Shown here in pieces: positions 8,434-51,648 of a stretch of DNA of 53,274 bases. The notes beneath the pieces are model-generated. The model saw only the letters and a program-made list of their open reading frames with translations, was not told the DNA's origin and did not search any database. The stretch lies in NCBI GenBank assembly GCA_017406175.1, contig JAFQZB010000316.1, positions 1-53,274 on the forward strand, in the 5' to 3' direction. Source of the stretch: Selenomonadaceae bacterium (GTDB taxonomy: Bacteria; Bacillota; Negativicutes; Selenomonadales; Selenomonadaceae). The position numbers were made by a program, and so were the translations under genes. Position 1 is the stretch's first letter. Each line of letters begins with the position of its first letter.

Positions 8434-8570
8434 GTGTTCTCCTCCCGACCTTTGTTTGATAAATATTCTACCAAAAATTTCCCCGTTGTCGATTAACTGA
8501 AAGTCGTATTCCTACACCCTTTAGATACACTTTAACAAAAAAGCCCCCGCACAGGGAGCTTAGATAATCT

Positions 8571-19612: not shown

Positions 19613-21804
19613 GTCTTATCGCCTCCGTTGAATCGTAAAGCAAACATCGTAATATCGTCCGATTGTTCAGCCTCGCCGACGTGCTTTGCCAAATCGCCGC
19701 GAACATTCCTAAGCAAATTCTCCAAGTCCTTTGTACAATCCGTCGAATTCATGAAGGCTATCAAGCGGTCGGGCAAATACTCTTCCTCCTTGACGTTCAA
19801 AGCCTCGGTGACACCGTCGGTATAAAGGAAAAGCAAATCGCCACGTTCAAGATTAATCTTCTGTTCGATAAAAGGAATGCCGTCCATGGGTCCGAGAACA
19901 AAATTTTTCTTAACGTCTAGGAAGTCGCAATGGTTGGTCGCCGCGTGATAGACGACTGGCGGATTGTGCCCCGCGTTGACGAAGGTAAATTCTCCCGTCT
20001 CAAGGTCGAGTACACCAACGAACGCCGTAACGAACATCATAGCCTCGTTGGTCGCGCAAAGTTGCTCATTGGCGGCGGCGACCACGGGTGCCAGTCCGTT
20101 TTGCTTATAAGAACTCGTGGCGAAGTTATTGAGCACGGTTTTAGCAATGACCATGAACAATGCGGCAGGAATTCCCTTGCCAGAGACATCAGCGACCGTT
20201 ATCGCTAGGTGCGTCTCGTCGAGGAAGTAGAAGTCGTAGAAGTCTCCGCCGACTGCCTTAGCAGGTTTCATCGTGGCTAATAGTTCAAAGTCTTTGCGCG
20301 TGGGAAAGTCCTTGGGCAGCATGCCGCTTTGAATATCTTTGGCAACGTCAAGTTCAGTGGCAATGCGTTCCTTCTCCGCCGTGACTTTCGTTAGGTTCGA
20401 CATCTGCGCTTTAAGGTCGTCGGTCATTGCGTTAAAGCACGTGGCAAGGTGTTCAATCTCGTCGCCAGTGTGTATTTCCAATTTCTTATCAAGGTTACCG
20501 CTTGCAATCTCGCGCACGCCGTCCGACAGCTCGCGAATCGGCTTGACGAACCGCCGCGAAAGGTTAGTACTCATTAAGACCAAAATTATCAGTAACACCA
20601 CGGGAATAATCACGGCGAGATTGTTCACGTAAGAATATTCCTGGCGCATTTTCTTTTGCAGGTTGGCGACTTGTTGCAAGAAGTATGCTCCCGTGCCCGC
20701 AGTAGCCCGTAATACTTCATTTTCCGAAACGAGCATACCGAAGCTCCAACCCGTCACTGGCATCGGCGCGAAAGCAAGATAATATTTATCGCCGTTCAAC
20801 TTGATGGGAACAACATCTTGCTCGCCGTTAGCCATGCGCTCAGCCGTCCTAGCCAAGTAAGTATCGCGCAAGTCGTCAGCCTCACCCACGGCAAGAACTC
20901 CTTTTGTCTGCGACGAGAAGATAACTTCGCCGTATTCGTTCATGACAAAGTTTATTCCGCCCTTAAACATATTTGCCATATTGATGAAGTTGTAAACGTC
21001 AATATTCGAGGCATCTACGCCCGCTACGCCAATCAGATTCCCCGCCGCGTCATAGAAGGGAGCCGCCGACCCGATTTGGTCATAAGATTTCTTTCCCTTA
21101 ACCTCAATCGTGCGATAAAGTTCAGAGATAACGGGAGCATTCTTTCTTTTGGCGGCGATATACCACGGACGCTTGCGCGGGTCGAATTCGTAAACGCGCT
21201 CGTGAGAAAAATGAAGCGTCGCGTTTAAGTCGGTATAGCCGTTCTCGTCGGGGACAAGTCGGGCACAAATATACCAGCCCTTTTCCCCGCCAACAAAAAT
21301 CGTCGCACTGTAGCCTAGGTAAGTTTTCAAAGCATCTTTCATAATGTCTTTGATGTTGGCGGCAAGCTCCAGTTCGCGTTGGATTTCGGGCGTGATATTG
21401 TCGCGGATATTGGGCGCATAAATCTTGTAAGGTTCGCCCTGCTTAACGGGGTCGGTGCGCGGGTCGGGCAATGTCTTTGGCAAATAGTCATCGGGGTGCG
21501 ACATTATCTCCGTCATTGCGTCGGCAATAATTTGGGCATCTTCCCGCGAGATTGACATTTCGCGGTCGACGTATTGCGCTTTGGCTTCGGCAAGTTCTCC
21601 GAGCGTTTGCTTTAGGTGTTTAACTAATAAATCATCAGCATAAGTTGCGCTTTCCTCGCCAAGCTCAATGCTCATCGCCACCATATCACGCCTTACGACG
21701 CCGCGCCCATAGTAAGAGAACAAACCGAGTATCAAGAATGTTACCAGCCCCGCCCCCAAGACCAGTATTAAAACCTTTTTGTGAATGTTAAGCTTCACTG
21801 TCAA
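19609..21804 (-). CDS. Membrane sensor PP2C/SpoIIE-family serine phosphatase (Cache-like periplasmic domain, HAMP, PP2C)
   Basis: N-terminal TM, a ~350-aa extracytoplasmic domain, a second TM, HAMP (LSDGVREIASGNLDKKL) and the SpoIIE domain (GGDFYDF, VADVSGKGIPAALFM, LYTDGVTEA, DDITMFALRF). Confidence 0.88.
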   Translation of the reverse strand: MTVKLNIHKKVLILVLGAGLVTFLILGLFSYYGRGVVRRDMVAMSIELGEESATYADDLLVKHLKQTLGELAEAKAQYVDREMSISREDAQIIADAMTEIMSHPDDYLPKTLPDPRTDPVKQGEPYKIYAPNIRDNITPEIQRELELAANIKDIMKDALKTYLGYSATIFVGGEKGWYICARLVPDENGYTDLNATLHFSHERVYEFDPRKRPWYIAAKRKNAPVISELYRTIEVKGKKSYDQIGSAAPFYDAAGNLIGVAGVDASNIDVYNFINMANMFKGGINFVMNEYGEVIFSSQTKGVLAVGEADDLRDTYLARTAERMANGEQDVVPIKLNGDKYYLAFAPMPVTGWSFGMLVSENEVLRATAGTGAYFLQQVANLQKKMRQEYSYVNNLAVIIPVVLLIILVLMSTNLSRRFVKPIRELSDGVREIASGNLDKKLEIHTGDEIEHLATCFNAMTDDLKAQMSNLTKVTAEKERIATELDVAKDIQSGMLPKDFPTRKDFELLATMKPAKAVGGDFYDFYFLDETHLAITVADVSGKGIPAALFMVIAKTVLNNFATSSYKQNGLAPVVAAANEQLCATNEAMMFVTAFVGVLDLETGEFTFVNAGHNPPVVYHAATNHCDFLDVKKNFVLGPMDGIPFIEQKINLERGDLLFLYTDGVTEALNVKEEEYLPDRLIAFMNSTDCTKDLENLLRNVRGDLAKHVGEAEQSDDITMFALRFNGGDKT

Positions 21805-22949
21805 TTCTCCCAGCCGAGTTGCTTTGCCTTAACGAAATCCTCTTGAGACTTCTTAATATCGCCGCGTGCCTTATAACATTCGCCACGGGAACGATACGTC
21901 AAAGCATTTGCATGGAACGGACTAAACTCAAGAGCCTTACTGAAATAAGTTATCGCCTTGTCATACTTGTCTAACTGCATGTAAGCATGCCCCAAACCGT
22001 TATAAGCCTCGCCGATTTTGGGATTTAGTTCAAGTGCCTTTTGGTAATAAAAAATGCTCTTCTCGTAATCCCGTTCGCCGTTGTAGATGTTGCCGAAGGT
22101 AGACCACGCCCAAGCATTTTTAGGATTCAAAGCCAACGAATCACTTGCAAGCGGTGCCGCCTCGGTGTATTTCTCTTCGTCGCAGAGTTTGCGAGCCGCC
22201 CTTATCTTTTCCCTAGCCGTGTTAATGTTCTTCGCCTGGATAAAGTCTGCGCGAGCCTTTTCCTTGTCGCCGAGAGCTTGATAACATTCGCCTCTGCCGT
22301 TGAAAGCCGTGCCGTTGTTCGGGTCGAGTTTGATTGCCTTGTCGTAGTTTTGGATTGCGTTCCCGAAATCGTTCTTAGTCTTATAAAACCAACCGAACTT
22401 TTCATAAACAGCGGCGTTGTTTGAATCCAGATTAATCGCCTCAGTTAAAAGGGACAGCACGTTATCAAAGCTACCCGCGTTCATGAGGTTATTGGCTTCC
22501 TCAACCTTCCTGTTCGACATGTAAAGATTTTCGTTATCTTGATTCACGGGCGGCGGCGGAATATTTTTCGGATTGCTGTCGCCAGAATTTTGCAAGCGGC
22601 GGTTCAAGTCTTCGGGGTCAATATCAACTTTAACGATGGCTTTAACGATTAAATCCGACCGCTCGTAGACGACTTCGCGAACTTGCAAGACAGCCCCCGT
22701 CCTTGAGGTTATCACGTCCTCGACAAGTTCAAAATCCTCCGTGCGTGAACGGCTCGTAACCAAAACGCCGGCTTGCTCCAGAGCATTGCGCATCGCCTTT
22801 TCCTTAGCACCCTGCTTGGCAATCTCCAGCGTGTCACGTTCGCCAATCATGTATTCGCCAACGCCTGTATAAGTTTTAACTTCGGCGTGACTTGTCGGCA
22901 TGAAGAGCAAACTACTGACGAGAGCCGCCAGCAAAAAAAGTTTCTTCAA
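21801..22949 (-). CDS. Exported LPP20-like N-domain plus TPR-repeat protein
   Basis: Signal peptide MKKLFLLAALVSSLLFMPTSHA. N-domain YTGVGEYMIGERDTLEIAKQGAKEKAMRNALEQAGV. About seven TPR units toward the C-terminus. Confidence 0.75.
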   Translation of the reverse strand: MKKLFLLAALVSSLLFMPTSHAEVKTYTGVGEYMIGERDTLEIAKQGAKEKAMRNALEQAGVLVTSRSRTEDFELVEDVITSRTGAVLQVREVVYERSDLIVKAIVKVDIDPEDLNRRLQNSGDSNPKNIPPPPVNQDNENLYMSNRKVEEANNLMNAGSFDNVLSLLTEAINLDSNNAAVYEKFGWFYKTKNDFGNAIQNYDKAIKLDPNNGTAFNGRGECYQALGDKEKARADFIQAKNINTAREKIRAARKLCDEEKYTEAAPLASDSLALNPKNAWAWSTFGNIYNGERDYEKSIFYYQKALELNPKIGEAYNGLGHAYMQLDKYDKAITYFSKALEFSPFHANALTYRSRGECYKARGDIKKSQEDFVKAKQLGWEN

Positions 22950-25123
22950 GTCTTATCACCTCCGTTGAATCGTAAGGCAAACATCGTTATATCGTCCGAT
23001 TGCTCAGCCATGCCGACATGCATTGACAAGTTGCCGCGAATATTTTTCAGCAACCCTTTTAAGTCCGTCGTGCAGTCCGTCGAGTTCATGAAGTTAATCA
23101 GGCGTTCGGGAAGATACTCCTCGTCGTTGACATTCAAAGCCTCGGTGACGCCGTCGGTATAAAGATAAAGCAGGTCGCCGGGCTTGAGTGAAATCTTTTG
23201 CTCAGCAAAGGGAATGTCGTCCATGGGTCCGAGAACAAAATTTTTCTTAACGTCTAGGAAGTCGCAATGATTTGTTGCCGCGTGATAGACGACTGGCGGA
23301 TTGTGCCCCGCGTTGACGAAGGTAAATTCTCCCGTCTCAAGGTCTAGCACACCGACGAACGCAGTCACGAACATCATAGCCTCGTTATTGGCGCAAAGCT
23401 TATCATTGGCGGCGGCGACCACTTCGGCTAGTCCCTCCCGGTTGTGCGTCGAGACCATAAAATTTTTAAGCACAGTCTTAGAGATGACCATAAAGAGCGC
23501 GGCGGGAATTCCCTTGCCAGAGACATCAGCGACCGTTATTGCTAGGTGCGTCTCGTCAATGAAGTAGAAGTCGTAGAAGTCTCCGCCGACCTCCTTAGCT
23601 GGCTTCATCGTGGCTAATAGTTCAAAGTCTTTGCGCGTGGGAAAGTCCTTGGGCAACATGCCGCTTTGAATATCTTTGGCAACGTCAAGTTCAGTGGCAA
23701 TGCGTTCCTTCTCCGCCGTGACTTTCGTTAGGTTCGACATGTAAGCTTTAAGCTCATCGGTCATTGCGTTAAAGCACGTGGCAAGGTGTTCAATCTCGTC
23801 GCCGGTGCGTATGTCCAGTTTCTTATCAAGGTTACCGCTTGCAATCTCGCGCACGCCGTCCGACAGCTCGTTAATCGGTTTAACAAGCTTAGCTGAAGCC
23901 TTATTGCTCACCGTAAAGAAAACATAAAGCAAGCCTCCAAGCAATATAATTGTGCAAAACGTCATGAAGATATATTCGTTCTGCAGTCTTAAGCTGAAGC
24001 CTTCGACCTGAGCGACAAAGTATTCTCTGCTTTTTTCGACAATATCATCAACGTCCTTGCGCAAAGTCAGCGTGCCGAAACTCCAGCCAGTACTTTCCAT
24101 CGGCGCAAATGCTAGGAAATAGTCTTCGCCGTCAATCGTAACTGGCATGATTCCGCTTTCGCCGTGCATCATCTTCCATACGGCGCGGGCAAATCTTCTT
24201 TTGGTAGTACTGCGCAAGTCTTCGCCGTCAACCATTGCAACAAGCTCGCCTTCGGTGCGTGAAGAGAAAATTATTTTGCCGTCCTTATTCAGAACGAAAC
24301 TGGAGCCGTCCGAGCCGATAGCCGTTTCATTAATCGCCTCGTAAATGTCAGTGTTCGATACGTCAATGCCAACGACGCCCGCCGCATTGCCCGACGCGTC
24401 GTAATAGGGCGCGGAGCAACCGATAAGCTGATACTTGCCTATGTTCATATGGGCGTAGAGGTCAGAGAAAACGGGAGCATTAGCCGCAATCGCCGCCTTG
24501 TACCAAGGACGCTCGCGGGGGTCGTAATCAAAGAACTCGCTCTCCTCGAATGGCAACGGACCATCATTATCAGGGAAGACGCTACTGCAGATTAACCAGC
24601 CGTGTTTGGAGCCGACATAGCATGAAGACTTATAATTGATAAAAGCACCTGCAAGCGGAGCGAGCAAAGTACGAATGTTGCTAGCGATTCCTATTTCGTG
24701 TTCCAATTCGGGCGTTAAACCGTCGCGCTTTACGTCAGGACCGTAAGTCAGATAAGTTTGCTTGTTGTAGACTGGTTCAAATCGCGGATTGAGGACTTTA
24801 ACGGGCTTATAGTCGTTGGGATTGGAAGCGATTTGCGTCATCGTATCTGCCAAAACTTTCACGTCCGAACGAATCAATTCCGTTTCGTTGTCAATGAATT
24901 CCGCACGAGCCCTAGCTAAATCTTCGAGCGTCCTTTTAAGCTGATACGTTACTAGATTTTCCGTGAAGTTCGCGCCCGCCTTGCTTAGGTCGTCGCCCAT
25001 CTCTTCCATTTCGTTTCGCACGGTCAATAAACCGTAAAAAGAAAGACCGCTCAAAGTCAAGAATGACAATATCCCCGCAGCCAAGACGAGGACGAGCAGT
25101 CTTTTTTGTATGTTCCATTTCAT
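22946..25123 (-). CDS. Membrane sensor PP2C/SpoIIE-family serine phosphatase, paralogue of 19609-21804
   Basis: Same architecture. The HAMP plus PP2C half is nearly identical to the paralogue, while the sensor half has diverged. Confidence 0.88.
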   Translation of the reverse strand: MKWNIQKRLLVLVLAAGILSFLTLSGLSFYGLLTVRNEMEEMGDDLSKAGANFTENLVTYQLKRTLEDLARARAEFIDNETELIRSDVKVLADTMTQIASNPNDYKPVKVLNPRFEPVYNKQTYLTYGPDVKRDGLTPELEHEIGIASNIRTLLAPLAGAFINYKSSCYVGSKHGWLICSSVFPDNDGPLPFEESEFFDYDPRERPWYKAAIAANAPVFSDLYAHMNIGKYQLIGCSAPYYDASGNAAGVVGIDVSNTDIYEAINETAIGSDGSSFVLNKDGKIIFSSRTEGELVAMVDGEDLRSTTKRRFARAVWKMMHGESGIMPVTIDGEDYFLAFAPMESTGWSFGTLTLRKDVDDIVEKSREYFVAQVEGFSLRLQNEYIFMTFCTIILLGGLLYVFFTVSNKASAKLVKPINELSDGVREIASGNLDKKLDIRTGDEIEHLATCFNAMTDELKAYMSNLTKVTAEKERIATELDVAKDIQSGMLPKDFPTRKDFELLATMKPAKEVGGDFYDFYFIDETHLAITVADVSGKGIPAALFMVISKTVLKNFMVSTHNREGLAEVVAAANDKLCANNEAMMFVTAFVGVLDLETGEFTFVNAGHNPPVVYHAATNHCDFLDVKKNFVLGPMDDIPFAEQKISLKPGDLLYLYTDGVTEALNVNDEEYLPERLINFMNSTDCTTDLKGLLKNIRGNLSMHVGMAEQSDDITMFALRFNGGDKT

Positions 25124-25133
25124 CGAAACAACC

Positions 25134-25541
25134 TCAGAAGAATTTTTTCATGCGCAGAATATTTTTTCCATCTGTGTATTCGTAAGCGATCTCATCAACA
25201 TTTTTTTTGACAAGGAAGATTCCTAAGCCGCCAACGTCGCGCTCCTCAATGCTAAGGGTCGTATCGGGGGATTCCTGTTCAAGCGGATTGTAAGGTTTGC
25301 CGCTATCAATGAAAGTCATCAACATGGCGTTAGGATTTTCTTCAAACTCCATGCAAAAAGTCGCCGGTCCCGTCTCAGGGTGATAGGCATAGCTGGCAAT
25401 GTTGACGAAGATTTCTTCAATGACAAGCTCGGTCTGCATTATGGCTTTCATAGAGCAATCGCGAGCCTCAAGTTTTTCCGTCGCGAAGTCGATAACCGCC
25501 TGCAGATTGTCGAGCACCGCATCAACTGTAATCTTTTCCAT
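25134..25541 (-). CDS. Anti-sigma regulatory factor-type Ser/Thr kinase (RsbW/SpoIIAB-like GHKL ATPase)
   Basis: 135 aa with ELVIEEIFVNIASYAY, DSGKPYNPL and GGLGIFLVKK motifs. Confidence 0.8.
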   Translation of the reverse strand: MEKITVDAVLDNLQAVIDFATEKLEARDCSMKAIMQTELVIEEIFVNIASYAYHPETGPATFCMEFEENPNAMLMTFIDSGKPYNPLEQESPDTTLSIEERDVGGLGIFLVKKNVDEIAYEYTDGKNILRMKKFF

Positions 25542-25553
25542 GAGAAGTCTCCG

Positions 25554-25850
25554 TTAAACGATCGTCATCAGGCTAGCAAAGCCCGTCATGTCCAAGACTT
25601 CCATAACCGCTTCGCTGACGTTTATGAGTTTCATTGAGCCTTGCTTGCTCATGCGCTTTTGGGCGACGAGCAAAACCCTAAGCCCAGCCGAGGCAATGTA
25701 CTTAAGCTCTGCGAAGTCGAACGTTAAATCCGTCACGTCGTTAAGGGCGGTCGTCAGTTCCTTGGACAGTTCTGGCGCGGAGCCTGCGTCGAGGCGTCCG
25801 ATAACTTTGATTGTCAATGCGCTACCTTGTTGTTCCTTTTTGATTTCCAT
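25554..25850 (-). CDS. STAS-domain anti-sigma-factor antagonist (RsbV/SpoIIAA-like)
   Basis: The ATG at 25850 follows SD AAAGGAG. LTIKVIGRLDAGSAPELSKEL...YIASAGLRVLL includes the conserved phosphorylatable Ser context. Confidence 0.85.
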   Translation of the reverse strand: MEIKKEQQGSALTIKVIGRLDAGSAPELSKELTTALNDVTDLTFDFAELKYIASAGLRVLLVAQKRMSKQGSMKLINVSEAVMEVLDMTGFASLMTIV

Positions 25851-25863
25851 TTTACAATCTCCT

Positions 25864-27501
25864 TTATAATTCTTTTCTTGCGGCAATGTACTTGTTGACA
25901 GAGGCAATGAGTTGCGCCACGTCAAACGGTTTGGCAATGTGGTAGTTCATGCCGCTTTCCATGCTCATGCGTTTATCCTCATCGCGAGAGTTTGCACTCA
26001 ACGCGATTATCGGCAAAACTTTTGCGTCGGGGCGGTCGAGTGCACGAATTGCCCGCGTCGCTTCGTAGCCGTTCATTATCGGCATCTGTATATCCATTAA
26101 CACAAGGTCATAATAGCCCGGCGGGTGCTTAGTAAAAACTTCCACAGCCTCCACGCCGTCGGCTACGGTCTCGACTGAAAAGCCCGACTCCTCCAAAATC
26201 GTCTCGGCAAGCATTCGATTGAGTTCAATGTCGTCGACCAAAAGGATTCGATGATTGTAGTTGTCATCGGCAACGAGTTCTTTAACCTCCTCAATGAAGG
26301 TTTTCTCGTCCTTTTCGCGATAAATCTTGAACGGCAAGCCCACGGTAAAGGTCGTGCCCTCGCCCTTCTTGCTTTCCGCTTCGATTGAACCGCCCATTGC
26401 GTCGACGAGCTTTTTAGTTATCGACAGCCCCAGCCCCGCGCTTATATGCCCCGTCTTAGTCGAAGTCTCTTCGCGTTCAAAGGTCTCATACATGCGCTTC
26501 ATAAATTCTTCCCGCATGCCCACGCCGTCATCACTAATCACGAACTCGCAACGAATATAATTTTCGTCTTCGGAAGTCTTCTTCTTCCTAGCAGTTAGTT
26601 TGACGTGTCCGCCCGGTTGCGTGAACTTAATCGCGTTGTCAAGCAGGGCAGAAAGTATCTTCCTTAAGTTCACGTCGTCGGTATAAACCATCTCTCGCGG
26701 CAGGTTGATGACACTCTCAAGCGAAATGTTTTTAACTTCCGCCCGACTTTTGAAGGCGTGCACCACGACCATAACTTGTTCTTCCAAGTCGCAAATCTCG
26801 GAGCGCAGTTGCGTCTTGCCGTAGGTTATCTTGCTCATGTCTAGGAGGTCATTGACGAGGTTAAGCATTTGCAGGCTACTTTCGTCGACCTTCTCTAGAT
26901 AATTCTTCAAGAGTTCAGGCTCGTTGATGTGCCGCCGCGCCAGTTCCGTGAAGCCTCTGATTGAGTTTAACGGCGTCAAGATGTCGTGCGAAATGCTGAA
27001 GAGAAACGCCGCTTTGATTTCGCTAGCTTGCTTTTCCTTGTCCAATTCCATTTCCATGCGTAGTTTCTCCTCCTGAATAAGCCGTCGTTCCGTAATATCG
27101 CTGATAAAAACATAAAAGGCGTCGCCGTGCTCAGGGAACGTCGCGAAGTGCCCGTAGTCGTCAATCCAGCGAATCGAACCATCTTTGCGCGTGATTCGAT
27201 ATTCTACGTGGTCTAAATGGTCGTTATCGGGGTCGGCAATTTGTTCTTCGATTGATTCTTGAATTGCGTCGAAGTCATCGGGATAAACCATGCCGCGGAA
27301 AGTGTAACCTGTCAGCTCCTTGAACTCGTCGAGGCTCTTGCAACCGTAAATATCCAAAACTTCATTGTTGGCGTAAAAAAGTTCGTAAGGCTCTTTGGCA
27401 GAGTAGACGAAGAAGCCGCCCGGAACTTGCTCGGCAACCCATTTTAGCATCGGCAAGACCTCGTACAAATGTTTCTTGCCTAAAAAACTCGTTCTTCCCA
27501 T
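25864..27501 (-). CDS. Hybrid sensor histidine kinase (PAS, HisKA, HATPase_c, receiver)
   Basis: H-box FSISHDILTPLNSI. N/G boxes LLDNAIKF and DDGVGM...GLGLSI. Receiver ILLVDDIELNRM...LVLMDIQMPIMNGYEA. Confidence 0.9.
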   Translation of the reverse strand: MGRTSFLGKKHLYEVLPMLKWVAEQVPGGFFVYSAKEPYELFYANNEVLDIYGCKSLDEFKELTGYTFRGMVYPDDFDAIQESIEEQIADPDNDHLDHVEYRITRKDGSIRWIDDYGHFATFPEHGDAFYVFISDITERRLIQEEKLRMEMELDKEKQASEIKAAFLFSISHDILTPLNSIRGFTELARRHINEPELLKNYLEKVDESSLQMLNLVNDLLDMSKITYGKTQLRSEICDLEEQVMVVVHAFKSRAEVKNISLESVINLPREMVYTDDVNLRKILSALLDNAIKFTQPGGHVKLTARKKKTSEDENYIRCEFVISDDGVGMREEFMKRMYETFEREETSTKTGHISAGLGLSITKKLVDAMGGSIEAESKKGEGTTFTVGLPFKIYREKDEKTFIEEVKELVADDNYNHRILLVDDIELNRMLAETILEESGFSVETVADGVEAVEVFTKHPPGYYDLVLMDIQMPIMNGYEATRAIRALDRPDAKVLPIIALSANSRDEDKRMSMESGMNYHIAKPFDVAQLIASVNKYIAARKEL

Positions 27502-30907: not shown

Positions 30908-31774
30908 TTGACTGATAAAAAAATTCCGCGCAGTAACGTTTCGGCTTATGTTAAGAAGTATCTTCAGCTTTGTATCGGGGCAGTGATTGCGGCACTGGGT
31001 CTTGAACTCTTCCTGATTCCAAACGAAGTCATTGATGGCGGCGTTGTCGGCTTGTCGATTATGGCGCAGTATCTGACGGGCTTGCCGCTAGGAACCTTCC
31101 TTATCCTGTTCAATATCCCGTTCCTGTGGCTGGCTTATAAGCAGATTGGCAAAGATTTCGTCATCGCGACGATTGTGGCGATAATTTTCCTTAGCATATG
31201 GTCTGAGGTCGTCGGCGAATATCCCAAGGTGACGAATGACCCGTTCTTAGCGGCGATATTCGGCGGGATAATTGACGGCTTAGGCGTCGGCTTGATTATG
31301 CGGGCGGGCGGCTCCCTAGACGGTACGGAGATTGTAGCAATCATCGTAGACAAGAAAACAATCTGGTCGGTCGGCGAAGTCGTCATGTTTATCAACCTGT
31401 TTATCCTGAGTGGCGCGGGCTTGCTCTTCGGTTGGGATAAGGCAATGTATTCGCTGTTTGCTTACTTCGTTATTTCCAGAATGATTGACGTTGTGATTAA
31501 GGGTCTCGACGAGATGTACGCGGTGATGATTGTCTCGAATATGCCCTATGAATTGACTGATGAGCTCAACGCCAAACTCGGACGCGGCGTCACGCTCCTG
31601 CACGGCGAAGGCGGCTACACCCACCAGAGCAAAGAAATTCTCTACTGCGTCGTCACACGCCTTGAGGTCGACAAGCTAAAGAAGATTGTTCTTGAGAAGG
31701 ACGAGCACGCCTTTGTTACGATTTATCCCGTCAACGATATTGTCGGCGGTCGCTTCAAGAAGTCTGGACACTAA
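30908..31774 (+). CDS. YitT-family membrane protein (DUF2179 C-terminal domain)
   Basis: IGAVIAALGLELFLIPNEVIDGGVVGLSI is typical of YitT. TTG at 30908 follows SD GAGGTGA. The start is uncertain. Confidence 0.75.
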   Translation: MTDKKIPRSNVSAYVKKYLQLCIGAVIAALGLELFLIPNEVIDGGVVGLSIMAQYLTGLPLGTFLILFNIPFLWLAYKQIGKDFVIATIVAIIFLSIWSEVVGEYPKVTNDPFLAAIFGGIIDGLGVGLIMRAGGSLDGTEIVAIIVDKKTIWSVGEVVMFINLFILSGAGLLFGWDKAMYSLFAYFVISRMIDVVIKGLDEMYAVMIVSNMPYELTDELNAKLGRGVTLLHGEGGYTHQSKEILYCVVTRLEVDKLKKIVLEKDEHAFVTIYPVNDIVGGRFKKSGH

Positions 31775-31825
31775 ATTAAAATCCCCCGTCAAACTTTCGA
31801 CGAGGGATATTTTTATACCGTCATG

Positions 31826-32200
31826 TTAAGCCGCTTTGATGAGGTCGAGAACCTGCCCATGAGTTAAGCTCTTGCCGTCTTTGCTGTAGTAGTTGTCGCT
31901 CTCGCGGAAGCCCGTTCCACCCCAACCAATGCTTATGTTCGATTTGATTCCGAGGCTGTCCTTTAGAATGCGTTCGGCAATCCGTGAGCCTACATTATTC
32001 CATGCTGCGGTTCCGACTTGACCGGCTACGGGGATTGCGCCGCCGATTTTCCGGATTCCGTTTGAAATATCTCCAACAACGCCCATCTTCTTTTCCATCG
32101 CGCTGTAGATTTCGTTGAATTCGTCCACCGTGCCGCCGCTGATGTTGTCGAGTTGCTCCATGTTGAGGATTTCTTCGTTGATGATGTTGATGTTTTTCAT
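31826..32200 (-). CDS. Double-glycine-leader secreted protein, paralogue 1 (124 aa precursor)
   Basis: Leader MKNINIINEEILNMEQLDNISGG fits the L(-12), L(-7), I(-4), GG(-2,-1) pattern. SD AAGGAG upstream. The C-terminal motif NYYSKDGKSLTHGQ is shared with 45697 and 50418. Confidence 0.7.
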   Translation of the reverse strand: MKNINIINEEILNMEQLDNISGGTVDEFNEIYSAMEKKMGVVGDISNGIRKIGGAIPVAGQVGTAAWNNVGSRIAERILKDSLGIKSNISIGWGGTGFRESDNYYSKDGKSLTHGQVLDLIKAA

Positions 32201-32250
32201 TGTTATCAGTCTCCTTTTTGTTTTTGTTTGGGATTTTGTTTTCTGTCCCT

Positions 32251-32278
32251 TATACGCAAGCCGAGCTGATTTGTTACA
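32251..32278 (-). promoter_or_regulatory. ECF-sigma-type promoter, TGTAAC-N16-CGTATA
   Basis: On the minus strand: TGTAAC (32278-32273), 16 nt, CGTATA (32256-32251), then AAGnnnCAGAAAAC. It lies directly after the clpB terminator. Confidence 0.6.
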
Positions 32279-32317
32279 AAAAAATCCCCGACTTTTTCAT
32301 CGGGGATAAAACGTTAA

Positions 32318-34942
32318 TTATTTATCGAGCTTAACGGCTGGCGTCTCCTTAACATTGAAGGTAAAGTCGCCGTCAAAGTCAATCTCGACCGTGTCGCCGT
32401 CCTTGACTTCGCCCGCGATAATCTTCTTGCTTAGCTCCGTCTCGACCGTGCGTGTCAAAAGCCGTTTAAGCGGTCGTGCGCCGTAGTTCGCGTCGAAGCC
32501 CTTATCAGCCAGCGTATCGACCGCGCCTTGCGTCCACGTGAGATTTATATTTGCCTGCTTGCTGAGTCGTTCGCCCAAAGTCTTAAGCAGAATCTCCGCG
32601 ATAGCTTTGACTTGCTCCTTAGCCAACGACTTGAAGACGATAATATCATCAATGCGGTTGAGGAATTCGGGACGGAAGTAATCCTTAAGCAAATTCTTGA
32701 TAATGCTCTCTGCCTCCGCGAATGCCTTGCTTGTGATGAATCCAATTTTTGCCCGCTGAAGGATTTCCTGCGAACCAAGATTGCTCGTCATGATGATAAC
32801 GGTGTTCTTGAAGTTCACGACGCGCCCTTTGCCGTCAGTCAATCTGCCGTCGTCTAGGATTTGCAGTAAGACGTTGAATACGTCGCGATGAGCCTTCTCA
32901 ATCTCGTCAAGCAGAATCACGCTGTAGGGTTTGCGGCGAATCTGTTCTGTTAATTGCCCGCCCTCGTCGTAGCCGACGTAACCAGGAGGCGCACCGATTA
33001 ATCTAGCGACCGTATGCTTTTCCATGTATTCGGACATGTCGACGCGGACAATACTGCGTTCGTCGTCGAAGAGTGCTTCCGCCAATGCCTTAGCTAATTC
33101 CGTTTTGCCGACGCCCGTCGGACCTAAGAAGATGAACGAGCCGATTGGGCGATTGGGGTCTTTGATACCTGCACGGGCGCGGAGGATAGCCTCGCTTACG
33201 GCTTTAACGGCTTCATCTTGCCCGACAACGCGTTCATGCAAAGTATCTTCCAAGTGCAAGAGCTTTTCGCGTTCGCCCGTCAACATTTTGGCAAGGGGGA
33301 TACCCGTCCACCGGCTGACGACGCGGGCAATATCTTCCTCGCCGACTTCCTCTTTTAACATGCGATTATCTTTATCCTGCGCGGCAATGTCTTCTTCCGC
33401 CTGCTTTAGCGTGGTCATCAGTTCGGGCAACTTGCCGTATTTAAGCTCGGACGCCTTCTGCAAGTTGTACGCCCGTTGAGCCTCCTCAATTTCACCGTTC
33501 ACGCTGTCGATTTCCTTCTTAATCGCACGCACACGCAGGATAGCTTCCTTTTCCGCCTCCCACTTGTCGCGAAGAACTTTTTCCTTGTCCTTGAGCTGGG
33601 TTATTTCTTCGGCAATGGCTTTAAGCTTTTCTTGGGACGCCGCGTCTGATTCTTTGTTAAGGGCTTGCTCCTCAATCTCAAGTTGCATAATCTTGCGGCG
33701 GGTCTCGTCGATTGGCGCGGGCAGTGATTCAATTTCCGTGCGGAGTTTAGCCGCCGCCTCGTCGACAAGATCAATCGCCTTATCGGGCAAGAATCGGTCG
33801 CTGATATAACGGTCGGAAAGAGTCGCCGCACTGACTAAAGCCGCGTCCCGAATCCTAACGCCGTGATGAACTTCGTAGCGTTCCTTTATGCCGCGCAGGA
33901 TTGTAATCGTGTCCTCAACGCTCGGTTCGCCGACCATGACGGGTTGAAAGCGGCGTTCAAGGGCGGTGTCCTTCTCCAGATACTTGCGGTACTCGTTAAG
34001 GGTCGTCGCGCCTATGCAACGCAATTCGCCACGCGCCCGCATCGGCTTAAGGATATGGCCCGCGTCCATTGCGCCTTCGGACGTGCCAGCCCCCACGACC
34101 GTATGCACCTCATCGATAAACAGCAGTATTTGCCCGTCGGACTTGGTAATTTCGTTGAGCACGGACTTTAACCGCTCCTCGAATTCGCCGCGGAACTTCG
34201 CGCCCGCAATCAACGCCGCCATGTCCAAAGCGTAAAGCGTTTTGTTCTTGAGCGATTCGGGCACGTCACCCGCGACGATACGTCTTGCAAGCCCCTCAAC
34301 GATAGCCGTTTTGCCGACGCCCGGTTCACCGATGAGCACAGGATTATTTTTCGTCCGCCGACTTAGGATTTCAATCGTCCGCCTAATTTCCTCGTCGCGC
34401 CCGATGACGGGGTCGAGCTCGCCAGCCAACGCCGCTTGCGTCAAATCCCGTCCGAACTTCGCTAAGCTCTGGTAAGTCTCTTCGGGATTGTCGCTCGTGA
34501 CGTTCTGTTTACGATTCTTTTTTATCGCCGCGTCGATTCGGTTCTTGTTCAGGTTAAATTCGCGGGCAATGTCTTGCACTTCCTTTTTGCCGTCGGTGAC
34601 TAGGGCAAGCAGTAAATGTTCCGTGCTGATAAATTCGTCTTTCATAGACGCCGCGTAATCTTTTGCCTTGCCCATGACACGCGCCAAATCCACGCCCATT
34701 GACAGCCGCTCTTGACCTTTGACTTGCGGAATCTTATTCAACTCCGCCTCCAGCCTGACTTTGAGCATTGGCAAATCCGTTTGACATTCCCTAAAGATTG
34801 TCGCCAATAATCCTTCCGGCTCCTTAGCCAACGCCAACATCAAATGCACCGAGCTGAATTCCTGATGATATTTCATTGCCGCGAGCTGTTGCGCCGCTTG
34901 AATTGCCTCTTGCGCTTTGTTCGTATATCTTTCTGCTACCAT
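32318..34942 (-). CDS. clpB: ATP-dependent chaperone/disaggregase ClpB
   Basis: Two AAA+ modules ([18 protein letters not shown]) and a long middle coiled coil. The ATG at 34942 follows SD AAGGAG. Confidence 0.95.
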
Positions 34943-43831: not shown

Positions 43832-45070
43832 ATGCAATCAATCGTTAAGGACATGGCATTAGCTCCGAGCGGGCACGCCAAAATTGAATGGGTAAAAAAC
43901 TTTATGCCAGTGATGTCGGCTATCGATAAGGAGTTTTCCGAGTCCAAACCTTTCGCGGGCAAGAGGATTTCGATAACCTTGCATCTTGAGGCGAAGACGG
44001 CTTATATGGCGGAAGTCTTCATGCACGCGGGCGCGGACGTCGTGATAACCGGCTCCAATCCGCTTTCCACTCAAGACGACGTGGCGGCGGCTCTAGCTGA
44101 AGACGGCGTAACTGTATTTGCTACTCATGGTTGCTCGCCCGAAGAGTACGACGACTATTTGAATAAGGCGGCGGACTTCGCGCCCGACATTTACATTGAC
44201 GACGGCGGCGACTTCACCGAGCTTATCCACACCAAACGCCGCGACGCCCTCCAAAAGATTATTGGCGGCTCCGAGGAAACTACAACGGGTGTATTGAGGC
44301 TTCGGGCTTTGGAACGACAAGGCAAGCTCGCCTTCCCGATGATTGCTGCTAATGACGCTTACTGCAAGTTCCTGTTCGATAATCGCTACGGCACGGGGCA
44401 ATCGACTTGGGATGGAATCATGCGCACGACTAATCTTGTTATCGCGGGCAAGACGGTTGTTATCGCGGGCTACGGCTGGTGCGGCAAAGGCGGCGCGATG
44501 CGTGCTAAGGGTTTGGGCGCGAACGTCATCATCACGGAAGTTGACCCGATTAAAGCGATTGAGGCGGTCTTCGACGGGTTCCGCGTTATGCCGATGATTG
44601 AGGCGGCTCCGCTCGGCGATATTTTCCTGACTTTGACGGGCGACAAGGACGTTATCACCGGCGAACACTATCCTCTGATGAAAAACGGAGCAATGCTCGC
44701 TAATGCTGGGCATTTCGACGTTGAAATTAATATTCCGCAACTCGAAGCGCAATCCGTGAGCCGCAAAGTCGTCCGCAACAACGTCGAGGAATTTTTACAG
44801 CACGACGGACGCAAGATTTATCTTTTGGCAGAAGGTCGGCTGGTAAATCTGGCTTCGGGCGACGGGCACCCCGCTGAAATCATGGATTTAAGCTTTGCCG
44901 TTCAATTCTTCAGCGCGGCGCACATTCTCCACAATCACACAAAGCTTGAGAACAAAGTTTACCTCATGCCCGAAGAAATCAATACAAAAATTGCCGAAAT
45001 CAAATTGGAATCAATCGGCGTGAAAATCGACACCCTAACCGACGAGCAAAGAGCTTATCTCGGCTTATGA
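43832..45070 (+). CDS. ahcY: Adenosylhomocysteinase
   Basis: [21 protein letters not shown] and the NAD-binding GYGWCGKG motif. Confidence 0.92.
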
Positions 45071-45408
45071 AAACTTCAATTGACGGGCGGCTTTTCGAGT
45101 GGGACGACGCCAAAAATAAAATTAACAAGATTAAACACGGCATCAACTTCAAGACGGCGGCGCGGGTTTTCAGCGACCCGTATCTCATTGAAGAATACGA
45201 CGAAGAGCATTCTACAGATGAAGACAGATGGAAAATTATTGGTATGGTTGACGATGTTTTATTTGTTATTTATACCAACCGCGACGAAAAAATACGATTG
45301 ATTTCTGCTCGTGAAGCGACCGAACAAGAAAGGGGAAGATATTATGGCAACCGTATTTTACTACTTACCAAATCCGCCGCCGCCGCTGACGGAAGAGGAA
45401 AAAGCTGA
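45067..45408 (+). CDS. brnT: BrnT-family (DUF497) type II toxin
   Basis: [29 protein letters not shown]...EDRWKIIG...[13 protein letters not shown] matches the BrnT pattern. The start overlaps the ahcY stop (ATGA). Confidence 0.8.
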
Positions 45409-45592
45409 ACTTGCCGCCCTAAAAGACCGTCCGATTACTTACGACGAGGATTGCCCGCCAATGACTGAGGAACAACTCGACGAACTCGATTATCTTATGC
45501 GCAAGTATAAAACGCGACGCATTACCAAAGAAATAAAGATGAAAGAATTCCCCGAACGTTTTCAAAAGCATAAATCAGAGGCAGCAGGATAA
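45344..45592 (+). CDS. BrnA/DUF4415-like antitoxin
   Basis: The ATG at 45344 follows SD AAAGGGGA. The acidic DRPITYDEDCPPMTEEQLDE segment is typical of BrnA-like partners. It overlaps the toxin ORF tail. Confidence 0.6.
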   Translation: MATVFYYLPNPPPPLTEEEKAELAALKDRPITYDEDCPPMTEEQLDELDYLMRKYKTRRITKEIKMKEFPERFQKHKSEAAG

Positions 45593-45605
45593 AAATTCTT
45601 TCGCG

Positions 45606-45629
45606 GGCGTCTTCGGACGCCTATTTTTT
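45606..45629 (+). terminator. Rho-independent terminator ending the long plus-strand gene string
   Basis: GGCGTC-TTCG-GACGCC followed by TATTTTTTATTTTT. Confidence 0.7.
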
Positions 45630-45642
45630 ATTTTTGGCAACG

Positions 45643-45678
45643 AAAAACCCTCCGACTTGTCGCCGAAGGGCTTTTTTT
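45643..45678 (-). terminator. Bidirectional terminator after GG-leader gene 2
   Basis: On the minus strand: GCCCTTCGGCGACAAGTCGGAGGG followed by TTTTT. Nearly the same hairpin follows gene 3 at 50775-50806. Confidence 0.65.
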
Positions 45679-45696: not shown

Positions 45697-46008
45697 TTAG
45701 CGGATAATCTTCGTTCCGTTCTCTGCGTCGAAATTTTTCCAGAATTGTTCGCGGGTAATCGTGTTGCCGCTCTTGTCGGTGTAAATGTTGGCGTTTAAGA
45801 GTCCGCCGTTGTCCTTGTAGCCCGCGTAACCCATTTTGTGGAGCAATTCGCGTACCGGAGTGGAATGAATGGAGTTTTCCGCGCTCAAAAGTCCGCGTTT
45901 GTACAGTTCGTCGCCGTCTTGCAATGTTTCGATTATTGTGCCGCCCGCCACGCCGTCAAGTTCCTCGTCGCTCAACACTTCGTCCTTCAAAATCTTTTCG
46001 TCAGCCAT
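45697..46008 (-). CDS. Double-glycine-leader secreted protein, paralogue 2 (103 aa precursor)
   Basis: The ATG at 46008 follows SD GGAGG. Leader MADEKILKDEVLSDEELDGVAGG is a perfect L(-12), E(-8), L(-7), V(-4), GG pattern. Confidence 0.75.
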   Translation of the reverse strand: MADEKILKDEVLSDEELDGVAGGTIIETLQDGDELYKRGLLSAENSIHSTPVRELLHKMGYAGYKDNGGLLNANIYTDKSGNTITREQFWKNFDAENGTKIIR

Positions 46009-46040
46009 TTTTATCAACCTCCAAATCGTTTTCTGCTTCT

Positions 46041-46068
46041 TATACGTTGAATTTCCGATTTCGTTACA
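46041..46068 (-). promoter_or_regulatory. ECF-sigma-type promoter, TGTAAC-N16-CGTATA
   Basis: On the minus strand: TGTAAC (46068-46063), 16 nt, CGTATA (46046-46041). A sigma70-like TTGACC-N17-TAAAGT lies just upstream (46098-46070). Confidence 0.6.
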
Positions 46069-46164
46069 AACTTTAGCAAAAAATTTTTTCGCGGTCAACG
46101 AAATTTTTTCAGGGCAGGAAATTTGCTTCAAGTACAGAAAAAATCTTCGCGAGGAGGGATTTAT

Positions 46165-50328: not shown

Positions 50329-50356
50329 TTGACTGCGGAAGATTTTTTGCTAAAAT
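50329..50356 (+). promoter_or_regulatory. Sigma70-type promoter upstream of GG-leader gene 3
   Basis: TTGACT (50329-50334), 16-nt spacer, TAAAAT (50351-50356). Confidence 0.5.
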
Positions 50357-50357
50357 G

Positions 50358-50385
50358 TGTAACGAAATGGATTTTTGAACGTATA
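50358..50385 (+). promoter_or_regulatory. ECF-sigma-type promoter, TGTAAC-N16-CGTATA
   Basis: TGTAAC (50358-50363), 16 nt, CGTATA (50380-50385), then AAGCTTCAGAAAAC. Confidence 0.6.
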
Positions 50386-50417
50386 AGCTTCAGAAAACAC
50401 TTTGGAGGTTGATAATC

Positions 50418-50756
50418 ATGGCAAAGGACATTTTGAAGGACGAAATCTTGAAGGACGAGGAACTCGAACAGGTAGCCGGCGGAACTTTTGCGGAAAGTTA
50501 TAGCGACGCTCAACAGTTTGAAAAACTCGGCGTGAAAATCTTCAAAAATGATTTGGTTGGCGTTCCGCTTCTCGACCCTGAAGGTTTCGTAAACCTGCGC
50601 GCAGCGTTTGATAAATACGGCGTCACAATCAAAGACGATGGGAGCATTTGGGGCGACTTGACTGGCAAATCCAAAGCAAATCAATATTATATCGACGGCA
50701 AGGAAGTCAGCCGCGAAGATGCCTGGAAACACATCAACGCGCAGTTCGGTAAGTAA
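50418..50756 (+). CDS. Double-glycine-leader secreted protein, paralogue 3 (112 aa precursor)
   Basis: The ATG at 50418 follows SD GGAGG. Leader MAKDILKDEILKDEELEQVAGG. The C-terminal NQYYIDGKEVSREDAWKHI matches the family motif. Confidence 0.75.
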   Translation: MAKDILKDEILKDEELEQVAGGTFAESYSDAQQFEKLGVKIFKNDLVGVPLLDPEGFVNLRAAFDKYGVTIKDDGSIWGDLTGKSKANQYYIDGKEVSREDAWKHINAQFGK

Positions 50757-50774
50757 AAAATCGTTTCAAAATCA

Positions 50775-50806
50775 AAAGCCCTTCGGCGAGTGTCGGAGGG
50801 CTTTTT
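50775..50806 (+). terminator. Terminator after GG-leader gene 3
   Basis: AAAAGCCCTTCGGCGAGTGTCGGAGGGCTTTTT, a near copy of the hairpin at 45643-45678. Confidence 0.7.
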
Positions 50807-50808
50807 AA

Positions 50809-51648
50809 TTAGTAGCTTAGCCACGTGAAGATAAAGATTGCGATAGAAACGATGCCATTGCGCATGAAGTAGGCTTGAGTGACTTCGCGATAGTCATTGG
50901 GACGAACAATAGCATGTTGATAGACAAGGGCAAGAGCCGCAATCGCCACGCCGACGAAATAAAGCTTACCCAAGCCGAGCATAAGCCCGACGATAACAAA
51001 GCAGATAATCGACACGACGTGAAGCCCGCGAGCAATGTTTAGGGCACCCGCCGCCCCGTACTTAGTCGCCAAAGAGTGAAGGCGTTGTGACTTGTCAAAG
51101 CGTTCGTCCTGTGCACCGTAGACCGCGTCGAAAGCTCCAATCCACAACGCGACCGCCACGCATAAGATTATCATTGGCAAGGAGATTGATTCGGTCAAGG
51201 CGACCCACGCGCCCGCCGGAGCCATTGCGATTGCCACGCCCAAGCACAGGTGACACCACGCGGTAAATCGTTTCGTGAACGGGTAAATTATGAACGGCAC
51301 CGCCGCCACGGGCAAAAGCTTTAAGCATATCGGCGGAAGTTGTGCGACTGTCACGACTAAAACTATCATACACAAAGCCACGAAGATTAACGCCTCGCCT
51401 TTGGTGACTTCGCCGCGAACCATTGCCCGATAAGATAGCCGCGGTTGCAACTTGTCGTATTTCAAGTCGGCTATGTTGTCAATGACGATTGCCGCCCAAC
51501 GCGCTGACGTTATCGCGACTAAGATTAAGACGACCGTCCAGAAGTCTGGCTGACCGTTCGTTGCCATGAAGGAGCTTGCCAACGCGAACGGCAGACTAAA
51601 TATCGTGTGCGGCAAGGCGACGTTGTTTGCATGAGCTTTTAATTTCAT
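50809..51648 (-). CDS. UbiA-family aromatic prenyltransferase
   Basis: Polytopic membrane protein with the NIADLKYD (NxxxDxxxD) and YGAQDERFD Asp-rich motifs. Confidence 0.82.
   Translation of the reverse strand: MKLKAHANNVALPHTIFSLPFALASSFMATNGQPDFWTVVLILVAITSARWAAIVIDNIADLKYDKLQPRLSYRAMVRGEVTKGEALIFVALCMIVLVVTVAQLPPICLKLLPVAAVPFIIYPFTKRFTAWCHLCLGVAIAMAPAGAWVALTESISLPMIILCVAVALWIGAFDAVYGAQDERFDKSQRLHSLATKYGAAGALNIARGLHVVSIICFVIVGLMLGLGKLYFVGVAIAALALVYQHAIVRPNDYREVTQAYFMRNGIVSIAIFIFTWLSY

Follow-up and report, generated by a model that had tools for sequence, protein, structure and literature searches.

Three dispersed double-glycine-leader genes of a Quinella-like rumen bacterium as putative members of a sigma factor-controlled regulon of secretion cassettes

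Three small genes, here named A, B, and C, encode proteins with double-glycine (GG) leaders on a 53,274-nt stretch of DNA from a Selenomonadaceae bacterium (assembly GCA_017406175.1, contig JAFQZB010000316.1), which is called the window in its full length. Based on the DNA upstream of these genes and on genome context in relatives, we propose with moderate confidence that A, B, and C form part of a regulon specific to their clade and made up of scattered monocistronic cassettes that encode substrates of a type I secretion system (T1SS) and are controlled by a sigma factor of the extracytoplasmic function (ECF) type. Because they have an ECF-type promoter motif and conserved terminators in common with cassettes of related bacteria, the three genes would belong to a genome-wide regulon of dozens of such units. 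The flanking DNA of the window is ~92 to 95% identical to that of Quinella sp. 1Q5 and related rumen metagenome-assembled genomes (MAGs), and the source organism belongs to the Quinella-like Selenomonadaceae of the rumen.

GG-leader genes and the putative promoter motif upstream of them

The three genes and their parts are as follows.

31826..32200, minus strand: gene A, 124-aa precursor with a leader of residues 1-23 (32132-32200) and a 101-aa cargo
45697..46008, minus strand: gene B, 103-aa precursor with a leader of residues 1-23 (45940-46008) and a soluble cargo domain of 80 aa
50418..50756, plus strand: gene C, 112-aa precursor with a leader of residues 1-22 (50418-50483) and a cargo domain of 90 aa

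All three are monocistronic, and their ATG codons lie 6 to 9 nt downstream of a GGAG(G) Shine-Dalgarno sequence. We defined a GG leader as an N-terminal segment of ~15 to 30 aa that ends in GG, GA, or GS, in which positions -4, -7, and -12 are hydrophobic and a position at about -8 is acidic. In a six-frame regular-expression scan of the window, this pattern occurred at A, B, and C only, which bears out both the coordinates and the classical leaders that a first-pass annotation of this DNA had assigned to them. The leaders of A (MKNINIINEEILNMEQLDNISGG, ending in LDNISGG), B (MADEKILKDEVLSDEELDGVAGG, ending in LDGVAGG), and C (MAKDILKDEILKDEELEQVAGG, ending in LEQVAGG) are each followed by T, and the predicted mature N termini read TIIETLQ, TFAESYS, and TVDEFNE. 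Positions -4, -7, and -12 of all three leaders are hydrophobic and position -8 is acidic, which fits the leaders of substrates of peptidase-containing ABC transporters (PCATs). The mature parts of 101, 80, and 90 aa contain no Cys, as annotated. They had also been called unusually long, which is correct for class II bacteriocins of Gram-positive bacteria, but the precursors are within the size of <150 aa used to screen diderm bacteria for class II microcins (PMC12219008).

Alignment of the three upstream regions uncovered a common block, TGTAAC-N16-CGTATAAG-N3-CAGAAAAC, followed by GGAGG-N-TGATAA-N-ATG. ECF promoters have AAC in the -35 element and CGT(A) in the -10 element with a spacer of 14 to 17 bp, CGTA being of the sigma-W type (PMC5758882); the motif fits this rule, with AAC at -35, CGTA at -10, and a 16-nt spacer. 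When up to two mismatches are allowed, it occurs exactly three times in 53 kb, each time before one of the three genes, where 0.16 occurrences are expected. The 9-base core GTAAC-N16-CGTA is likewise found three times in the window, at the same genes (0.23 expected), and none of 100 shuffled sequences reached that number. The elements that flank the genes are listed here.

32249..32278, minus strand: ECF-type promoter motif of A, the sole promoter-like element upstream of this gene
46039..46068, minus strand: ECF-type promoter motif of B, followed by CAGAAAAC and the Shine-Dalgarno sequence; one of only three matches in the window
50358..50387, plus strand: ECF-type promoter motif of C, from the motif scan
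46070..46098, minus strand: sigma-70-like promoter of B, TTGACC-17-TAAAGT with TG upstream, 9 of 12 consensus positions, directly upstream of the motif
50329..50356, plus strand: sigma-70-like promoter of C, TTGACT-16-TAAAAT with TG upstream, immediately upstream of the motif
32284..32307, minus strand: clpB terminator, abutting the motif of A
31781..31808, minus strand: intrinsic terminator of A, -18.3 kcal/mol, z-score -4.0
45640..45676, minus strand: intrinsic terminator of B, AAAGCCCUUCGGCG...GUCGGAGGGUUUUU, -20.5 kcal/mol, z-score -5.5
50774..50810, plus strand: intrinsic terminator of C, with a stem nearly identical to that of B, -22.1 kcal/mol, z-score -5.4

A consensus scan of positions 31700-32400 found no sigma-70-like site near gene A, and the motif of A directly follows the clpB terminator, which insulates the gene from read-through. 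Thus, at A the motif would have to act as a promoter alone. The stem that the B and C terminators have in common recurs in cassettes of other genomes. No Rfam family matched at the cassettes, the sole match in the window being a tRNA. We also considered direct repeats of the LytTR/ComE type and rejected them, since the motif halves share only GTA and no space is left for a downstream -35/-10 pair before the start codon. Past the terminator of B (45600-45660, minus strand), the sequence CGTTGCCAAAAATAAAAAAT resembles the first part of a next cassette's promoter block, perhaps left over from a tandem array that once stood here.

B and C are paralogues with homology over their full length (34% identity, BLAST E value 4e-14). 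A matched B and C by BLAST in the leader only, and matched a B/C profile in hhalign only at the C-terminal motif, with a probability of 6%. The three had been described as one family; this holds for B and C, whereas A has only the leader and a short C-terminal motif in common with them. The middle of cargo A is Gly/Ala-rich and hydrophobic, and the common motif, N-x-Y-...-G-K-x-[ILV]-[ST]-x-x-[EQ], stands at its end. The T-x-x-E start noted after the GG is also real, with T1, E4, and D8 invariant or nearly so (alignments A2 and A5). Homologue searches retrieved 564 proteins for B (74 to 99% identity among the best 120 of the 564), 128 for C, and 11 for A, and the leader is kept across hundreds of homologues. 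Compared with syntenic orthologues, dN/dS was 0.14 to 0.21 for A and 0.28 for B (0.14 to 0.28 overall), with C versus locus L013 (loci of other genomes carry the prefix L) as a single outlier at 0.44; the flanking housekeeping genes gave 0.02 to 0.12. The many homologues and these dN/dS values indicate that A, B, and C are real genes.

Family models contributed little. Pfam scans of A, B, and C gave only subthreshold matches in the leader region, to Bacteriocin_IIc (PF10439; 14.2 bits versus a gathering threshold of 27.1) and ComC (PF03047; 13.8 bits versus 20.4). Among NCBIfam models, TIGR03793, TIGR03795, and TIGR03798 were not matched even at an E value of ≤1, and PADLOC gave no match. As the first-pass annotation stated, each gene is solitary between housekeeping genes. 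No immunity-like open reading frame (ORF) adjoins A, B, or C, the intergenic gaps being only 50 to 120 nt, and tblastn of the window found no match to PCAT, ABC2, HlyD, MFP, TolC, or sigma factor queries; the annotation was likewise right that the window lacks a C39 transporter, a modification enzyme, and an immunity gene. The large ORFs at 18.6 to 31 kb encode SpoIIE phosphatases, TPR proteins, UvrB, and similar proteins. Those at 19.6 to 25.1 kb, considered as PCAT or HlyD candidates, are in fact Cache-HAMP-SpoIIE phosphatases and a TPR protein.

The surroundings of the three genes have features of their own. Directly beside gene B, at 45067-45592 on the plus strand, a BrnT-family toxin gene (Pfam, 90 bits) and an overlapping 93-aa ORF probably form a BrnT/BrnA toxin-antitoxin pair. 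Between clpB and yitT (31775-32310), the content of the slot differs among genomes: gene A occupies it here and in L006 and L009, L012 (1047-1500) has a different, membrane-like GG cargo, and in L081 (12073-13000) and L077 yitT is adjoined by the PCAT operon itself. An additional gene of 484 to 517 aa lies between the deacetylase gene and gene C in close relatives (L107 2530-3984, L108 1511-3013, L109 1759-3312); it matches no Pfam model and does not occur in the window.

Cassettes, sigma gene, and export operon in related genomes

We scanned the 22-base motif in 185,579 species, each represented by one genome. It was found at 57 loci, in Selenomonadaceae/Quinella rumen MAGs and on one Bacteroidales-labelled 4.4-kb contig that is probably misbinned, with up to seven copies per genome. 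Together with the 3 copies in the window, the 65 copies in these loci make 68, of which 6 at locus edges or pseudogenes were not assessable. A GG-leader ORF begins ~20 to 110 nt after the motif in 61 of the other 62; the remaining copy precedes a protein with a Sec signal. GG genes retrieved independently of the motif carried it in all eight cases from Quinella-like loci, whereas none of those from distant lineages did.

The cassettes have a common plan. An A/T tract, often TTGAC-N17-TAAAGT, and always (G)TAAC-N16-CGTATAA make up the promoter block, which is followed by a short 5′ untranslated region with CAGAAAAC and GGAGG, a conserved GG leader, a freely varying cargo, and a conserved terminator. 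The leaders are short (22 to 29 aa), and recur in two types, MAKEILKDEILKDEELDNVAGG and MATREENLKKINDELEKLSDEELEKVAGG; no other part is as well conserved over the dozens of unrelated cargos. The cargos are very diverse: 14 are short peptides of 15 to 37 aa (e.g., FYARSNGG...IIHVR), the cargo in L040 is hydrophobic, Gly-rich, and bacteriocin-like, and 31 of the 41 longer ones carry the C-terminal motif, as N-x-Y...G-K-x-[IV]-[ST]-x-x-E, so that the motif noted in the first-pass annotation extends to related cassettes. Paralogues are solitary among housekeeping genes or stand in small arrays with a promoter and a terminator for each gene.

Among the cargos of L020, L039, and L043, some contain a second, internal leader-like segment (...EKVAGG-LMPQNG...KLSDDELEKIAGG-YTWNHWDC...) and others repeat the FYAR peptide unit, which suggests recombination between cassettes. 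Short tandem heptamers (TAGGGAC, GGAATTG/AGGAATT, TGCGTAA) occur upstream of the sigma locus described below (L105 9620-9720) and of cassettes in L041, L057, and L031.

One copy of the motif connects the cassettes to a candidate regulator. In L018, the motif overlaps the stop codon of an ECF sigma factor gene (TIGR02937, 131 bits; Sigma70_r2 and r4_2) and is followed by a 64-aa ORF, MTTIENKLGNVDFSQFSKVKDSLLFRLKLRRRAINEEMSLEDLDQVAAAG up to a leader-like end and then NPNLKPDFNKIPVV. The same order of sigma gene, motif, and small leader-like protein is found in L067, L069, L103 (Quinella sp. 1Q5), and L105. The ECF sigma gene adjoins an export operon in nine loci including L018, with sigma factor identities of 40 to 100%. 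In L080, where the sigma factor is 44% identical, the motif varies as well, to TGT(C/A)AT-N16-C(A/G)TATAA(C/T), and this variant precedes the sigma gene itself, a GG gene between two ABC genes, and a homologue of the small protein.

The adjoining operon encodes a type I secretion system with the following components.

MFP: model RND_mfp
HlyD: TIGR03794, 224 to 227 bits (cutoff 156)
ABC1 with C39 peptidase, the PCAT: TIGR03796, 973 to 977 bits (cutoff 853)
ABC2: TIGR03797, 725 to 740 bits (cutoff 709)
TolC: TolC family

The NHLP-type set of TIGR03794, TIGR03796, and TIGR03797 is adjacent and above cutoffs in L067 and L105, and the C39 domain, residues 1-150 of the TIGR03796 protein, has an intact catalytic triad, with Cys in QMEATECG, His in NHFVVL, and Asp in LNDPA. 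The operon is conserved in ~25 rumen metagenome loci, and GG-leader genes lie within or beside it in L080, L082, L086, and L089. Two of these encode members of the B/C family: that of L082 immediately follows ABC2 (hhalign probability 90%), and that of L089 lies 5.6 kb downstream of TolC (93%). ABC2 is a protein of 897 aa with an N-terminal extension of ~200 aa (L067 9356-10000, L103 10873-13566, L105 12314-15007) that, by eye, looks like a barrel of the cyclic-nucleotide-binding type.

The closest view of how these loci lie relative to the window comes from contig ERZ28018703:k141_191243 (85,756 bp), which is 92 to 95% identical to the window in nucleotide sequence over the amidohydrolase, deacetylase, C, UbiA, and PRK genes. 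It carries a 95%-identical orthologue of C at ~81.4 kb and a sigma/TolC/ABC2/PCAT/HlyD/MFP locus at ~20 to 30 kb, where a copy of the motif and a small leader-like protein are also found. This locus lies ~52 kb beyond the UbiA side of C, a distance that, with synteny preserved, would put it just past the window's right end. Of the named relatives, Quinella sp. 1Q5 is the closest. It has orthologues of A, B, and C (L009 and L038), and its locus L103 shows the order glgB, 61-aa protein, sigma gene at 8550-9095, motif, 64-aa protein, TolC, ABC2; its contig ends inside the operon after ABC2, so that only TIGR03797 is visible. UBA7018 has an orthologue of C (L051) on a 374,538-bp contig and a PCAT recorded on a 374,538-bp contig, and the two are probably on one contig. 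The absence of a nearby transporter noted in the first-pass annotation therefore applies to the window and probably not to this type of genome, given the PCAT locus ~52 kb from the C orthologue of contig k141_191243 and the corresponding locus, visible up to ABC2, in Quinella sp. 1Q5.

Small proteins flank the sigma gene on both sides. The one after it (L018 3684-3878, L067 13625-13813, L103 9150-9344, L105 10604-10786) is soluble and 60 to 64 aa long, with a conserved N-terminal part of 50 aa, then ...ELDQVAAAG, and then a variable tail of 10 to 15 aa; its possible roles are those of anti-sigma factor, pheromone precursor, and decoy substrate. Directly upstream of the sigma gene is a conserved protein of 61 to 69 aa with one N-terminal transmembrane helix (L018 2805-3014, L103 8300-8485, L105 9748-9933). 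Neither protein matched a family model.

Given the architecture of the motif, the lack of an alternative promoter at A, the linkage of the motif to the sigma gene, and the covariation of the two, we infer that the motif is an ECF-dependent promoter; linkage and covariation are seen in relatives. The mechanism that we propose draws throughout on sequence and genome context. The ECF-type sigma factor, encoded beside the export operon, would recognize AAC (-35) and CGTA (-10) and thereby turn on all cassettes jointly. The C39 domain of the NHLP-type ABC exporter (TIGR03796) would then recognize the leaders of the precursors and cut after GG, freeing cargos that begin with T-x-x-E, which PCAT (ABC1), ABC2 (TIGR03797), HlyD (TIGR03794), MFP, and TolC would pump across both membranes. 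The B/C cargo, as a compact alpha/beta domain of ~80 to 90 aa, would act outside the cell by binding.

Several observations weigh against this proposal. At B, C, and most though not all other cassettes, a good TG-extended sigma-70-like promoter lies immediately upstream of the motif, and conservation reaches past both ECF elements, to the GAAATCGGATTTGAA spacer and to CAGAAAAC near +1, which exceeds what a promoter needs. Both are in keeping with an alternative in which the housekeeping sigma factor transcribes the cassettes from TTGAC-N17-TAAAGT; the block TGTAAC...CGTATAAG...CAGAAAAC would then be a transcribed 5′ leader or a repressor- or RNA-level operator, kept by common ancestry. Moreover, the universal presence of the motif in L006 to L062 reflects the retrieval of those loci by the motif. 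The sigma gene of the window lineage has a sigma-70-type promoter of its own and no obvious autoregulation, and no canonical anti-sigma factor was identified among the proteins that flank it. The lack of immunity genes beside the cassettes is atypical for toxins. Finally, the sigma gene and PCAT are predicted for this exact genome from synteny with a relative of 92 to 95% identity.

Nevertheless, we judge transcription by the housekeeping sigma factor unlikely, with B and C as the genes at which it could apply. Gene A, which directly follows a terminator, and ~15 other cassettes keep the motif and have no TTGAC element, and the motif conforms to the AAC/CGTA/16-nt rule of ECF promoters. In several species the ECF sigma gene has a copy at its stop codon, the motif shifts where the sigma factor diverges, and the Rfam search gave no sign of an RNA family at the cassettes.

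A bolder extension of ECF control, in which we place little confidence, casts the leader-bearing protein after the sigma gene as an anti-sigma factor or pheromone. Its engagement, cleavage, or export by the PCAT might free the sigma factor or feed back on it and so couple exporter activity to the cassettes, much as FlgM is exported through the flagellum. Under this checkpoint, the B/C domain with its new fold would be a secreted binding or signaling family of Quinella-like rumen bacteria and not a toxin. The window itself contains a module of the partner-switching type (19609-27501, minus strand), with two Cache-HAMP-SpoIIE phosphatases, an RsbW-like kinase, a STAS protein, a hybrid histidine kinase, and a TPR protein whose N terminus is weakly FlgT_N-like; no sigma gene lies near it.

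The B/C cargo domain and its possible role

A profile of the mature B/C domain, searched against 1.84 billion proteins clustered at 50% identity, retrieved 67 clusters. Nearly all (60-odd) are proteins of ~90 to 130 aa in which the domain starts directly after a GG leader, and the named members are from the Selenomonadaceae. Long repeat proteins among the matches (P0262, P0274, P0286, and others) were set aside as spurious partial matches. AlphaFold2 modeled full-length B with a mediocre pLDDT of 66 and without a Foldseek match. For mature C, predicted from a 49-sequence alignment, pLDDT was 90.8 and pTM 0.81, with the topology alpha, beta-hairpin, alpha, beta, short alpha, beta-hairpin, alpha. 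Foldseek found no match for this model in the PDB (best E value 1.1, TM ≤ 0.34) or in BFVD, a PDB sequence-profile search returned nothing meaningful, and a Pfam scan of 49 mature domains was empty. The suggestion of a new family thus stands, as Pfam, NCBIfam, PADLOC, PDB sequences, and Foldseek gave no match to the cargo.

The GG leaders might be coincidental and the proteins intracellular, as the scores of the curated leader models Bacteriocin_IIc and ComC, which are below their cutoffs, would allow. We consider this extremely improbable: the leader outlasts every other part of the precursors across dozens of unrelated cargos, the B/C domain begins right behind it in 60-odd of the 67 clusters, family members lie inside or beside PCAT operons, and a known intracellular family, looked for with Pfam and the PDB sequence profile, was not found.

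Gly, Asn, and Tyr positions are invariant in the domain, and an Asp is nearly so, whereas enzyme-like conservation of Cys, His, or Ser is not seen in the alignment. In the absence of such catalytic-type residues, the domain probably binds something, and it probably does so outside the cell. Its role could be antagonism of the class II microcin kind or that of a signal.

In the former case, A, B, and C would be conventional antibacterial toxins, that is, microcin-like bacteriocins of a diderm Firmicute with immunity encoded elsewhere or not needed. A GG leader, a precursor of <150 aa, and export by PCAT, MFP, and TolC correspond to the definition of class II microcins (PMC9746304, PMC12219008), and some sister cargos are hydrophobic, Gly-rich, and bacteriocin-like (L040 and the middle of A). 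In addition, A-like genes in L024 and L026 adjoin ABC exporters that could confer immunity. Yet B and C are hydrophilic (GRAVY -0.7 and -0.5) and predicted to fold as domains, in contrast to membrane-active peptides; none of the three has an immunity-like ORF beside it; and the genes belong to the core set, kept in synteny and under purifying selection from species to species, rather than to strain-variable islands. The missing immunity genes, conserved synteny, and purifying selection argue against a classical bacteriocin island and still leave room for antagonism, and we regard a toxin function as possible, though on the doubtful side. The exporters in question, of 502 to 560 aa, stand beside A-like and other GG-leader genes in L024 (2595-4103), L026, and L060 (600-2282). 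We rejected them as PCATs, as they have no C39 domain and are CydC/ABCB-like; they could be immunity or auxiliary pumps.

Relation to known systems and significance

The export operon has a clear precedent. Haft et al. (2010) tied the TIGR03794/TIGR03796/TIGR03797 cassette to the large NHLP/Nif11 precursor families (PMC2887384), and the same three genes score above curated cutoffs in relatives of the window. As in those prochlorosin-like systems, a genome has many precursor paralogues, many of them far from the transporter, and the leader is conserved up to GG whereas the core is hypervariable. However, the leaders described here (22 to 29 aa) are short and classical and derive from neither nitrile hydratase (NHase) nor Nif11, the cores are unmodifiable peptides or long, Cys-free domains predicted to fold, and no modification enzymes accompany them. 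Each precursor gene has a promoter and terminator of its own, the transporter locus comes with an ECF sigma gene, and the host is a rumen diderm Firmicute. Because the long leaders of the NHase-alpha or Nif11 type are absent (leaders of A, B, and C are 22 to 23 aa), we do not count the three among NHLP/Nif11 precursors.

The shared export cassette, defined for NHLP/N11P precursors (PMC2887384), nonetheless raises the question of whether A, B, and C are precursors of ribosomally synthesized and posttranslationally modified peptides (RiPPs), with cores modified before export as in NHLP/Nif11 substrates. A radical-SAM/PqqD cluster does lie near paralogues in L001. Set against this are the short leaders, with TIGR03793 and TIGR03798 unmatched, the long Cys-free cores, of which that of B/C is predicted to fold alone, and the lack of a modification enzyme near any cassette of the window, and we find modification very unlikely. 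The cluster in L001 (5498-7862) contains four or five tiny RiPP-like ORFs and lies just upstream of two GG-leader paralogues.

The Selenomonadaceae are diderm, as are the hosts of class II microcins. In microcin systems (MccV/CvaAB-TolC), too, precursors are <150 aa with a GG signal of 15 to 25 aa that is cut by a PCAT, and export proceeds through PCAT, MFP, and TolC over two membranes, as predicted here. Precursors of 103 to 124 aa and a single locus for MFP, HlyD, PCAT, ABC2, and TolC in relatives agree with the size and export features of this class. Its immunity proteins, small and usually membrane-embedded, are encoded beside the precursor, and A, B, and C depart from this part of the definition, as no immunity gene is adjacent. 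Other differences are that the precursor genes are not clustered with the exporter and are syntenic across species, that the cargo is hydrophilic and predicted to be folded, that the exporter has two ABC proteins, and that the cassettes have a dedicated ECF-type promoter.

In streptococci, GG-peptide regulons are controlled by LytTR or Rgg regulators acting on upstream repeats and not by a sigma factor. These streptococcal and pneumococcal systems (ComAB/BlpAB/RtgAB; PMC7018657, PMC7595303) likewise combine GG peptides from multiple loci with a common promoter element, promiscuous export by a PCAT, and a small GG peptide of pheromone-like character whose gene adjoins those of the regulator and transporter. 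Their monoderm hosts have no need of TolC or MFP, and their cargos are short peptides. In RiPP clusters of actinomycetes, such as that of microbisporicin (MibX/MibW), a cluster-situated ECF sigma factor drives the peptide and export genes, all within one compact cluster that includes a membrane anti-sigma factor. Here, by contrast, control would extend to dozens of cassettes at separate places in the genome, with no visible canonical anti-sigma factor. New elements are the modular cassette of promoter, leader, and terminator, a putative ECF-type control linked to the exporter, the fold of the cargo, and the diderm Firmicute host. A literature search on GG peptides, microcins, and PCATs in Selenomonas, Quinella, or Negativicutes, or on ECF sigma factors together with double-glycine leaders, found no prior description.

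A regulon of this kind could explain orphan GG-leader genes that have no transporter nearby: one exporter and one sigma factor would serve many scattered cassettes with exchangeable cargo. The cargo family of at least 60 clusters defined here has a confidently predicted fold without known relatives. The pairing of promoter and sigma factor, cleavage of the leader by C39, and secretion could all be reconstituted in a heterologous host without culturing the source organism. If our proposal is true, secretion of folded domains of ~10 kDa by PCAT-containing type I systems extends to diderm Firmicutes. The simple DNA rule of GTAAC-N16-CGTATAA followed by a GG leader would then allow the secreted repertoire of the uncultivated Quinella and other Selenomonadaceae, which are abundant in the rumen, to be read from metagenomes.

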